In this document: in pieces, positions 10,457-10,500 of the stretch
Layout of the letters: each line of letters starts with the position of its first letter
Numbering within the stretch: the stretch's first letter is position 1
Assembly (NCBI GenBank): GCA_964449235.1
Contig: CAYVAX010000001.1
Location: forward strand, 20,814 to 84,813
Origin: an uncultured Candidatus Saccharibacteria bacterium
GTDB lineage: Bacteria; Patescibacteriota; Minisyncoccia; RBG-13-40-8-A; JAUWHN01
Length of the DNA stretch: 64,000 nt
Reading direction: 5' to 3'
Made by a program: the position numbers and the translations under genes
Notes under the pieces: model-generated
Told to the model about the DNA's origin: nothing
The model's database searches: none
Seen by the model: only the letters and a program-made list of their open reading frames with translations

Positions 10457-10500
10457 GAGAGAGAGAGAGAGAGAGAGAGAGAGAGAGAGAGAGAGAGAGA
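10457..10500. repeat. (GA)22 dinucleotide microsatellite
   Basis: 44 nt of uninterrupted gagaga..., 72 bp upstream of the first gene of the surface-protein cluster. Confidence 0.95.

Follow-up and report, generated by a model that had tools for sequence, protein, structure and literature searches.

A GA dinucleotide repeat inside a candidate leader open reading frame as a putative attenuator-type phase switch ahead of a pilus-like gene cluster in a Candidatus Saccharibacteria contig

A long and perfect dinucleotide repeat directly upstream of genes for surface proteins raises the question of whether changes in its length alter the expression of those genes and, if so, by what route. The repeat considered here lies in a stretch of 64,000 nt from an uncultured Candidatus Saccharibacteria bacterium (GenBank accession number CAYVAX010000001.1, positions 20,814 to 84,813), which is referred to as the window and in which positions are counted from the first base. 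We hold with moderate confidence that this repeat, (GA)22.5, is the mutable element of a leader-open-reading-frame attenuator of the Pil1 type that would switch a pilus-like operon on and off. The reading is drawn from the sequence of the window and its relatives.

A perfect GA tract ahead of a surface gene cluster

Tandem Repeats Finder reported an alternating GA run with period 2, 22.5 copies, 100 % matches and no indels, which extends over 45 nt from G10457 to G10501 in the context tacGAGAG...GAGAGtaaa. The first-pass annotation of this DNA had described a perfect repeat of 44 nt located 72 bp upstream of a surface-protein cluster, in an intergenic region of about 400 bp. The repeat and its position were confirmed, with G10501 added to the run. 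The gap that holds it measures 404 bp, from the end of a YceG/MltG gene at 10168 to the next ORF start at 10573, and the distance from the end of the tract to the ATG of the first gene of the cluster (gene 1) is 71 nt, or 72 when counted from 10500. No other dinucleotide repeat in the window reaches five units. In 100 first-order Markov simulations of the whole window, the longest dinucleotide run had a mean of 4.3 units and a maximum of 6. The tract is real, perfect and far beyond chance.

Tract length in related genomes

Full-length orthologues of gene 1 were found at 49–65 % identity, with a further group at approximately 36–46 %, all of them in uncultured Patescibacteria, also known as the candidate phyla radiation (CPR). 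At three of these loci (L009, L005 and L008) the leader DNA that follows the tract is 90, 85 and 81 % identical to that of the window, respectively, whereas the adjacent proteins are only 61–62 % identical (61 % for L009). The tract at the homologous position is 45 nt long in the window, 26 nt in L009 and 10 nt in L005, and is degenerate in L008 (GAGAAAGAA). More distant relatives carry 5, 7 or 26 or more units, or a degenerate remnant, and no such leader was present at the orthologous loci L007, L001, L003, L006 and L020.

Variation over a shorter time scale was examined in the 90 %-identity cluster of the L009 protein, which comprises L009 and six further contigs. Tract lengths were read from consensus assemblies, and the variation described is that of this sister species, the species of the window being represented by one assembly. 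The seven contigs fall into two sub-lineages that are approximately 96 % identical to each other. In sub-lineage A the tract is 26 nt long in L009 and L018 and 34 nt long in L017, with 8–16 mismatches in 2567 nt of flanking sequence. In sub-lineage B it is 22 nt long in L013, L014 and L015 and 26 nt long in L016, with 0–22 mismatches in flanks of 1183–2567 nt; the 22 nt and 26 nt contigs differ from each other by 5–16 flank mismatches. The comparison of copy number at orthologous loci that the first-pass annotation had suggested therefore gives 11, 13 or 17 units among contigs with flanks that are 99.4–100 % identical. All four contigs of sub-lineage B encode an identical 331-aa protein (P0109), with 11, 11, 11 and 13 units. 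The distance from tract end to ATG is exactly 71 nt in all seven contigs, as in the window. As near-identical flanks carry different lengths, tract length changes while the flanks gain few substitutions per kb, and the tract is demonstrably unstable at the homologous site in relatives.

Further copies were sought in other ways. Exact-protein look-ups with MltG and gene 1 of the window found no further contig on record, and a scan of a genome collection with the leader core pattern gave no matches. A metagenome scan with the same pattern recovered only L009's own contig, a near-copy of L008 and an apparently unrelated contig, L011.

The leader ORF and its start

The whole tract is contained in an ATG-initiated leader open reading frame (ORF) upstream of the structural genes (Table 1). 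The encoded peptide, MWNNLFMSSIYLFNRDPEAIPAKCYEVRRPQCQGKARY(ER)n, closes at a TAA right behind the tract, and this is the sole open frame over the stretch, stops interrupting the other two. A candidate extended −10 box, TGGAATAAT, resembles TGGTATAAT, which in the L009 group and in L031, a more distant locus described below, stands 10 nt ahead of the leader ATG. Together with the ATG at 10361 the candidate box would make a leaderless start. An alternative, weaker box (TAGATT, 10328–10333) lies 9 nt before the ATG at 10343. The region in which the ORF starts is doubled by a 17-nt tandem duplication (approximately 2.4 copies, 10337–10379), which yields the two in-frame ATGs, each with TATTT before it and the second with a TGG-AATAAT box 6 nt upstream.

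Among 52 crude gene starts in the window, just 8 have a Shine-Dalgarno (SD)-like motif within 20 nt, so a leader ORF start that has none is normal here. In several genes the start codon comes a few bases after a TATAAT-like box, as it does in the L007 orthologue. The pattern suggests that SD-independent or leaderless initiation is frequent in this lineage.

In the L009 group the perfect extended −10 box is found 64 nt upstream of the tract, and when the window, L009, L005 and L008 were compared, nothing promoter-like was conserved between the tract and gene 1. For these reasons the tract is most likely transcribed, downstream of a promoter, and it is probably translated. Its length and its position both rule it out as the spacer between a −35 and a −10 box.

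Between the ORF start and the tract lies a block of higher GC content, with a predicted fold that is a long imperfect hairpin (−22.7 kcal/mol, z −2.0). It was not found in the leaders of L005, L009 and L031 and is specific to the window lineage. A riboswitch or mobile element was considered for this block and rejected, as there is no second copy in the window or at any locus and it is missing from the orthologous leaders. In L007, which has no repeat, the DNA ahead of the orthologue includes a GC-rich stretch of vague similarity (CCGAAGC...).

Table 1. Positions of the candidate leader elements and of the downstream genes in the window
Feature	Position	Strand	Basis or remark
Leader ORF, 53 aa (47 aa from in-frame ATG 10361)	10343..10504	+	ORF listing, frame analysis
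Candidate extended −10 box TGGAATAAT	10346..10354	+	hexamer scan; 6 nt before in-frame ATG 10361
GC-rich block in leader ORF	10388..10456	+	composition profile: 44–54 % GC against 35 % for the window
(GA)22.5 repeat	10457..10501	+	each unit change moves the leader frame by 2 nt
TAA, stop of the 'short' frame (present allele)	10502..10504	+	frame analysis; 25 nt before the terminator stem
Hairpin P1, CCAAA / loop ATTTTAA / TTTGG	10511..10527	+	conserved in window, L009, L005, L008
Hairpin P2 with 7-U run (10554–10560), intrinsic-terminator-like	10530..10560	+	terminator scan
TAA, stop of the 'middle' frame, tail SKFRQNFNLEPI	10536..10538	+	in 5′ arm of P2; reached with one GA unit more
TAA, stop of the 'long' frame, tail VNFAKILIWSRFNFG	10546..10548	+	in 3′ arm of P2; reached with one GA unit fewer
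Gene 1, 335 aa, N-terminal membrane anchor, C-terminal domain common to gene 2	10573..11580	+	
Gene 2, 170 aa, signal peptide	11669..12181	+	beta-sandwich model, weak likeness to donor-strand pilins
Gene 3, 204 aa, signal peptide, PapD-like chaperone domain, long C-terminal helix	12225..12839	+	model with predicted local distance difference test (pLDDT) score of 77
Gene 4, 333 aa, secreted, poly-Glu/poly-Gly linker	12887..13888	+	sub-threshold dockerin-like C-terminus
Gene 5, 937 aa, large secreted/surface protein, weak Ig-like matches	13916..16729	+	

Hairpins between the tract and gene 1

Two hairpins, P1 and P2, follow the tract. P2 pairs 10530–10539 with 10544–10553 around a TTTG loop, giving a 10-bp stem (−14.2 kcal/mol) and an element that ends 12 nt before the ATG of gene 1; the terminator scan returned three sites against 0.6 expected. 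P2 is a predicted intrinsic terminator between the leader ORF and the first structural gene. Each helix carries one compensatory pair: the closing C-G pair of P1 is U-A in L008, and in P2 an A-U pair changes to G-C in addition to wobble changes. In the alignment 95 % of cells are paired, against at most 55 % with the partner columns slid, which with four distinct sequences gives modest support for covariation. Unrelated hairpins with U-runs hold the position of P2 in L031 and in two other distant loci, L024 and L019. The fold of the whole leader was not clearly better than that of shuffled sequence (z −1.6).

Two other explanations of the DNA behind the tract were tried and rejected. A conserved post-tract peptide (tails ILIWSQFNF and QNFNLEPI) fails as a stop closes the first frame in L008 and the second frame has no start in the window; the two conserved hairpins explain the conservation. 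A leaderless promoter for gene 1 inside the T-run has a spacing that fits the window and L005 and fails in L009 and L008.

A small number of side observations concern this part of the leader. Bases 3351–3400 of L011 (minus strand) include a 30-nt stretch that is 97 % identical to the leader core of the window (CAAAATTTTAATTTGGAGCCGATTTAA), in an otherwise unrelated, very AT-rich contig of 116 kb. There, a (GGAGCGC)3 heptanucleotide repeat and a TATAAT box precede the stretch, which contains a small ATG ORF ending ...QNFNLEPI*, the same tail as that of the middle frame of the window, and neither hairpin P2 nor a gene of the family follows. L012 terminates in an inverted self-copy centred on P2 (2231–2309), and L024 breaks within its own tract, (GA)26, at bases 1–52. 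Both are assembly artefacts, and loci of this type are probably truncated or too rarely recovered in metagenome assemblies.

Reading frames set by the repeat

As the repeat unit of 2 nt is not divisible by three, one unit gained or lost shifts the leader frame. The stops behind the tract in the window are found at +1 (25 nt before the stem), +35 (5′ arm of P2) and +45 (3′ arm), and modelled window alleles cycle through the short, middle and long frames with a period of three units. In all leader types one frame stops no more than 5 nt from the end of the tract and another enters or passes the terminator hairpin, and in four leader types a stop codon follows the tract directly. The sequence GTAAAT right after the tract is common to the window, sub-lineage A of the L009 group and L031, with GTAGAT in sub-lineage B, and it is kept in L031 although all sequence farther downstream differs.

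All three frame states are found in the L009 species, the long state in L009, L018 and L013–L015, the short state in L017 and the middle state in L016. In sub-lineage B a 1-nt insertion before the tract combined with a tract that is 4 nt shorter restores the long frame of sub-lineage A. This is suggestive, with one-in-three odds of arising by chance.

The same layout in distant CPR lineages

A protein-guided scan limited to one genome per species gave three further informative loci. In L031, from Candidatus Torokbacteria, TGGTATAAT is followed 10 nt on by an ATG, approximately 55 nt homologous to the L009 group, (AG)7 and GTAAAT, and then by unrelated sequence, a hairpin (ACACTC/GAGTGT) with a T-run and a gene with an N-terminus that matches gene 1. 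L024 opens inside (GA)26 at the contig end, so that the tract has 26 or more units. After a spacer and a hairpin (AGCAC/GTGCT) flanked by A- and T-runs come a gene for a 331-aa orthologue and genes for proteins of 167 aa and 206 aa, the cluster of the window. In L019, from the Minisyncoccales (bases 2430–2610), TGCTATAAT is followed 11 nt on by an ATG, (CT)8 and a hairpin (GCACGC/GCGTGC) with a T-run. This leader precedes the gene for the small paralogue and not that for the large one, and, unlike gene 1, this gene has an SD-like motif (AAGGTG).

Predicted hairpin energies range from −10 to −18 kcal/mol across the leader types. The order of the parts, a −10 box, a start codon 9–11 nt later, a dinucleotide repeat, a terminator and a gene, is kept despite GA or CT units and unrelated terminators. 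In the window, the L009 group, L031 and L019 an ATG is found 9–11 nt past a −10-like box (TGGTATAAT or TGCTATAAT) and the frame is open into the repeat; the pre-tract frame of L024 is cut off by the contig end. When openness ahead of the tract was assessed by shuffling, P was 0.07–0.39 per locus with a product of approximately 1e-3 over five loci, a set that includes the GTG frame of L005 and two loci that are homologous, with the choice of start codon adding further freedom.

The (CT)8 repeat of L019 indicates that it is the shifting of the frame rather than a purine-rich RNA that matters. Binding of a protein to (GA)n RNA, for which TRAP-like GAG repeats, the Hfq AG-repeat and CsrA were candidates, became unlikely once this repeat was seen. 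We tentatively suggest, short of favouring it, that leaderless leader-ORF attenuators gated by dinucleotide repeats form a conserved module across several CPR/Patescibacteria lineages, where they may control an unrecognised fibre system with pilin-like proteins and a membrane-anchored PapD-like protein.

How the switch would work

Transcription would start at the −10 box just upstream of the small ORF, and the leader ORF would be translated from the ATG at 10343 or 10361 without an SD sequence, possibly on a leaderless message. The ORF reads straight through the repeat, and each slippage event of 2 nt would put the ribosome in another frame. With the present allele the ORF would end 25 nt before P2, the hairpin would form and most transcripts would end before gene 1, a low or OFF state. 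Loss or gain of a single unit would move the end of the ORF into the stem, where a ribosome would block formation of the hairpin. A stop there lies 27–37 nt from the main AUG, which has no SD sequence, so that both read-through and re-initiation may be favoured, giving an ON state. The states would repeat every three units, and slipped-strand mutation would produce heritable, reversible on/off heterogeneity in a surface fibre. A hypermutable simple repeat linked to genes for a surface structure, by which Moxon and colleagues recognise a contingency locus, appears to be present here, with the hypermutability taken from the relatives.

Parts of such a switch are known from other bacteria. In the pyrBI operon of Escherichia coli the leader ORF overlaps the terminator, and a ribosome in the terminator region blocks the hairpin and permits read-through. 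The ribosome translating the leader of the window would prevent the terminator hairpin in the same manner, but the pyrBI signal is physiological (RNA polymerase pausing that depends on uridine triphosphate), whereas the signal here would be genetic, the frame set by the repeat. At cwpV of Clostridioides difficile, a surface gene also varies in phase through a change in leader DNA that decides whether an intrinsic terminator forms. That change is a site-specific inversion by a recombinase, with no leader ORF, rather than repeat slippage combined with a leader ORF. The (TA)n repeats of hifA/hifB in Haemophilus influenzae and of Vmm in Mycoplasma mycoides are likewise dinucleotide repeats upstream of fimbrial or surface genes. 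They sit between the −35 and −10 boxes and act on the initiation of transcription, in contrast to the tract of the window, which spans 45 nt between the likely promoter and a terminator.

The closest counterpart is found at the pil1 and pil3 loci of Streptococcus gallolyticus, where a promoter is followed by a leader ORF with 22 (pil1) or 13 (pil3) GCAGA repeats and a stem-loop terminator with a T-run (Danne et al. 2014, PMC3894217). In-frame repeat numbers there give a short leader that stops 39–49 nt before the hairpin and low expression, while out-of-frame numbers place the stop just before, within or after the hairpin and give high expression. Mutation of the leader start, stops in all frames and deletion of a terminator arm had largely the predicted effects, with expression slightly raised by the triple stop, and in natural isolates a stop at least 28 nt before the terminator corresponds to the low state (PMC3894217). 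The window shares with pil1 the order of promoter (a candidate one in the window), repeat-containing leader ORF, terminator with T-run and first pilus or fibre gene, a unit that is not a multiple of three, and one frame that stops well before the terminator with two that stop in or next to it; the number of units is 22 in both. Repeat number differs between isolates of S. gallolyticus and, for the leader considered here, between contigs of the sister species. As the locus matches the S. gallolyticus design feature by feature, the present allele is predicted to be in the low state.

There are also differences. The repeat is made of dinucleotides, GA in the window and CT in L019, in place of the pentanucleotide GCAGA. 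The leader ORF lacks a ribosome-binding site and is possibly leaderless. The host belongs to the CPR/Patescibacteria and not to the streptococci, and the downstream genes resemble those for donor-strand pilins with a PapD-like chaperone instead of sortase-assembled LPXTG pilins. Between the short-frame stop and the hairpin there are 25 nt, against 39–49 nt in S. gallolyticus, and pil1 is proven by experiment whereas the window is known from sequence alone. A second comparison is with hmw1A of H. influenzae, where an untranslated heptanucleotide repeat in the 5′ untranslated region (UTR) pairs with a G-rich arm and RNase III cuts the resulting hairpin, with effects graded by length (Rapun-Araiz et al. 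2025, PMC12721329). In both cases a simple repeat lies in the leader between a promoter and a surface gene, and in hmw1A the copy number varies by strain and sets the level of the adhesin. Unlike hmw1A, the window has no long partner arm, its repeat is inside an ORF and a terminator follows.

Weighing the explanations

Several observations weigh against a leader-ORF attenuator. The promoter in the window is weak or ambiguous, being either AATAAT with a TGn extension or TAGATT, and a perfect TATAAT sits 71 nt farther upstream. The only start available in L005 is GTG, and in L008 the tract is degenerate and no ORF is convincing. The leader peptide has no called homologue among 5.8 billion proteins and is not conserved, its N-terminal part in the window being unrelated to that of L009 or L031. 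The leaders of L009 and L031 differ by substitutions that are spread evenly across codon positions (4, 6 and 5 by manual count). The peptide thus appears to be under no detectable selection, which is compatible with the attenuator and lends it no support; what the model needs is that the ORF and its stops matter, not the peptide sequence. The frame states of the observed alleles do not differ from random, and the middle state of L016 presumes B-type upstream sequence, as indicated by the first seven bases of a truncated contig. Against a composition-matched null the layout of stops behind the tract has P of 0.30–0.54 per leader type and a product of 0.027, and is not compelling on its own. Finally, 25 nt separate the short-frame stop from the stem (22 nt from an extended stem), slightly less than the 28 nt or more of the low state in S. 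gallolyticus.

Some of these points are shared with two other explanations. The repeat may be transcribed as part of an untranslated 5′ UTR in which RNA or DNA structure tunes expression in a graded manner and the small ORF is coincidental, through pairing with upstream CUCU/CUCG or U-runs, through processing by an RNase, or through R-loops or triplex DNA that the purine/pyrimidine tract forms and at which RNA polymerase stalls. We consider this unlikely, though well short of negligible. In the L009 group, L031 and L019 the best promoter boxes lie ahead of the tract, CUCUCU immediately precedes it in the L009 group and CUCG in the window, and the hmw1A repeat sets the level of an adhesin in this way via a hairpin and RNase III (PMC12721329). 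GA and CT tracts are moreover the same duplex DNA, so that an effect at the DNA level survives the change seen in L019, and the frame layout is attainable by chance, with no selection at the level of the peptide. What it leaves unexplained is the ATG 9–11 nt after a −10 box with an open frame (the product of approximately 1e-3 given above, GTG of L005 included) and the stop directly after the tract in four leader types; the repeat also has no long partner comparable to the G-rich arm of hmw, with the fold of the whole leader at z −1.6. The other explanation, which we likewise regard as unlikely, is that a neutral, slippage-prone microsatellite is tolerated in a non-essential part of a conserved leader and has no regulatory effect. 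The evidence is of length variation and not of an effect, the tract is missing from L007, L001, L003, L006 and L020 and decayed in L008, and the frame states look random. Yet the 64 kb hold no second long simple repeat, and none was seen elsewhere at the other loci, which argues against a general accumulation of repeats across the genome. In several CPR lineages with wholly diverged terminators and flanks, the corresponding part of the leader again carries a dinucleotide repeat, once as CT, and uninterrupted tracts of 22 and of 26 or more units imply both ongoing turnover and retention.

A switch of the promoter type, in which the repeat alters the spacing of a −35/−10 pair or that between an activator and a downstream promoter, has its precedents in the (TA)n repeats of hif and Vmm and could draw on the weak −10-like hexamers in the T-rich DNA behind the hairpin, such as TATTAT at 10560–10565, 7 nt before the ATG. 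It is nonetheless highly improbable. No consistent −35/−10 pair flanks the tract or lies between tract and ATG in the window, L009, L005 or L008, a 45-nt tract cannot be a −35/−10 spacer, strong extended −10 boxes are upstream of the tract in three leader types, and the 71 nt after the tract are occupied by two conserved hairpins and a U-run. Only slightly less remote is a free-standing gene that does not regulate the cluster, be it for a small RNA that ends at the terminator or for a small protein of Glu-Arg repeats that has a function of its own. A promoter-like box, approximately 200 nt and an intrinsic terminator are the anatomy of a small RNA, and the ORF has 53 codons. Against this, the element in every case directly precedes a gene of this family and ends 12–50 nt from the gene start, which leaves no room for a further promoter, only the post-tract hairpins are conserved in the clade of the window and not the peptide or the pre-tract sequence, and there was neither an Rfam family nor a called protein homologue. 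Terminated leader transcripts could act in trans, so that this explanation and the attenuator do not fully exclude each other. For the attenuator itself, the expectation of the first-pass annotation that repeat number modulates the whole cluster is supported as far as sequence goes, by the 11, 13 and 17 units of the sister species and the pil1-like architecture. The mechanism would be leader-ORF frameshifting ahead of a terminator rather than promoter spacing, because the tract is likely to be transcribed and probably translated.

The downstream gene cluster and other features

The five genes downstream of the leader are co-directional (Table 1). No convincing terminator was predicted before 16843, and they may therefore form one transcript. 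The order of genes for proteins of 331, 171, 203 and 348 aa is kept in L005, L009, L017 and L018, and partly in L024. Genes 1 and 2 both encode N-terminal hydrophobic segments and are paralogous in the C-terminal domain (50 % identity, E 1e-43), in agreement with the description of paralogous surface proteins in the first-pass annotation. Gene 1 has no Pfam or NCBIfam match, and sequence searches against the PDB (genes 2 and 3) and NCBIfam (genes 1–5) gave nothing useful. The hexanucleotide repeats (TGTTTC)3 and (TTTCTG)3, at 11172–11191 and 11790–11807 in the window, at 785–802 in L009 and at equivalent positions, encode a conserved VSVSVS strand that opens the domain shared by genes 1 and 2. 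They preserve the frame and are equal in length in all relatives seen.

Almost all matches of the gene 3 structure model in a Foldseek search were to chaperones of chaperone-usher systems (DraB, Caf1M, FaeE, FimC and PapD, E 4e-6 to 1e-4). The match spans approximately 130 columns, equivalent to one beta-sandwich, with template modelling (TM) scores of 0.3–0.4, and in place of the second domain there is the C-terminal helix, which is probably a membrane anchor. Gene 3 has 902 homologues at E 1e-3 or better, with identities of approximately 60–87 % among the best 120 listed, and three homologue clusters are labelled 'P pilus assembly chaperone PapD' by JGI. It is a very widespread CPR protein. 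No usher match was found in Pfam or NCBIfam for genes 1–5, and the cluster is therefore not a strict chaperone-usher system and shares elements of the fold only.

Two functional labels given earlier to the later genes did not hold. The dockerin label of gene 4 corresponds to a Dockerin_1 match of 18.0 bits (E 0.0034), below the Pfam cut-off of 22.9, and there was no Pfam match to cohesin in any of genes 1–5, so that the cohesin scaffold has no support. The linker of gene 4, EEEEEEEEESSGGGGGGG (poly-Glu followed by poly-Gly), is encoded by trinucleotide runs of AGA and GGA at 13606–13660. Pilin-like subunits with a PapD-like chaperone are the better-supported reading of the cluster from the structure models, and genes 1–3 hint at an undescribed fibre-assembly system in bacteria that have no outer-membrane usher.

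On the other side of the leader, two terminator-like hairpins (10176–10222) lie just after the MltG gene, and the hexamer scan revealed several −10-like hexamers in the AT-rich DNA between them and the GC-rich block. The tract region contained no Rfam family at gathering thresholds, with only noise up to E 10, and no transfer RNA (tRNA) or transfer-messenger RNA detected by ARAGORN. The only matches to either in the window are tRNA-Val(CAC) at 21316–21387 and tRNA-Glu(CTC) at 31268–31342.

Implications

The CPR/Patescibacteria are a huge, almost uncultured branch of the bacteria, thought to live attached to other cells, and to our knowledge the regulation of their surface structures is essentially unknown. 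A literature search found no report of repeat-driven phase variation in CPR bacteria, and this is apparently the first phase-variation switch proposed for them. The kind of mechanism is already known, and the case differs from its precedent in the repeat unit, the missing ribosome-binding site, the lineage and the genes controlled. In practical terms, such tracts break assemblies, as in L024 where the contig ends inside the tract, and gene callers ignore leader ORFs.

If the proposal is true, the streptococcal mechanism would be a more general design that has arisen in, or spread to, very distant bacteria with another repeat and no ribosome-binding site. The idea could be tested directly from existing metagenomes and metatranscriptomes, with no need for culture. 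A conserved CPR cluster of unknown function, with 902 homologues of gene 3 alone, would be marked as a surface appendage whose importance warrants bet-hedging. The module suggested above would also be the first phase-variation system described in the CPR, and would mean that these episymbionts hedge their bets in the display of a surface or attachment appendage.

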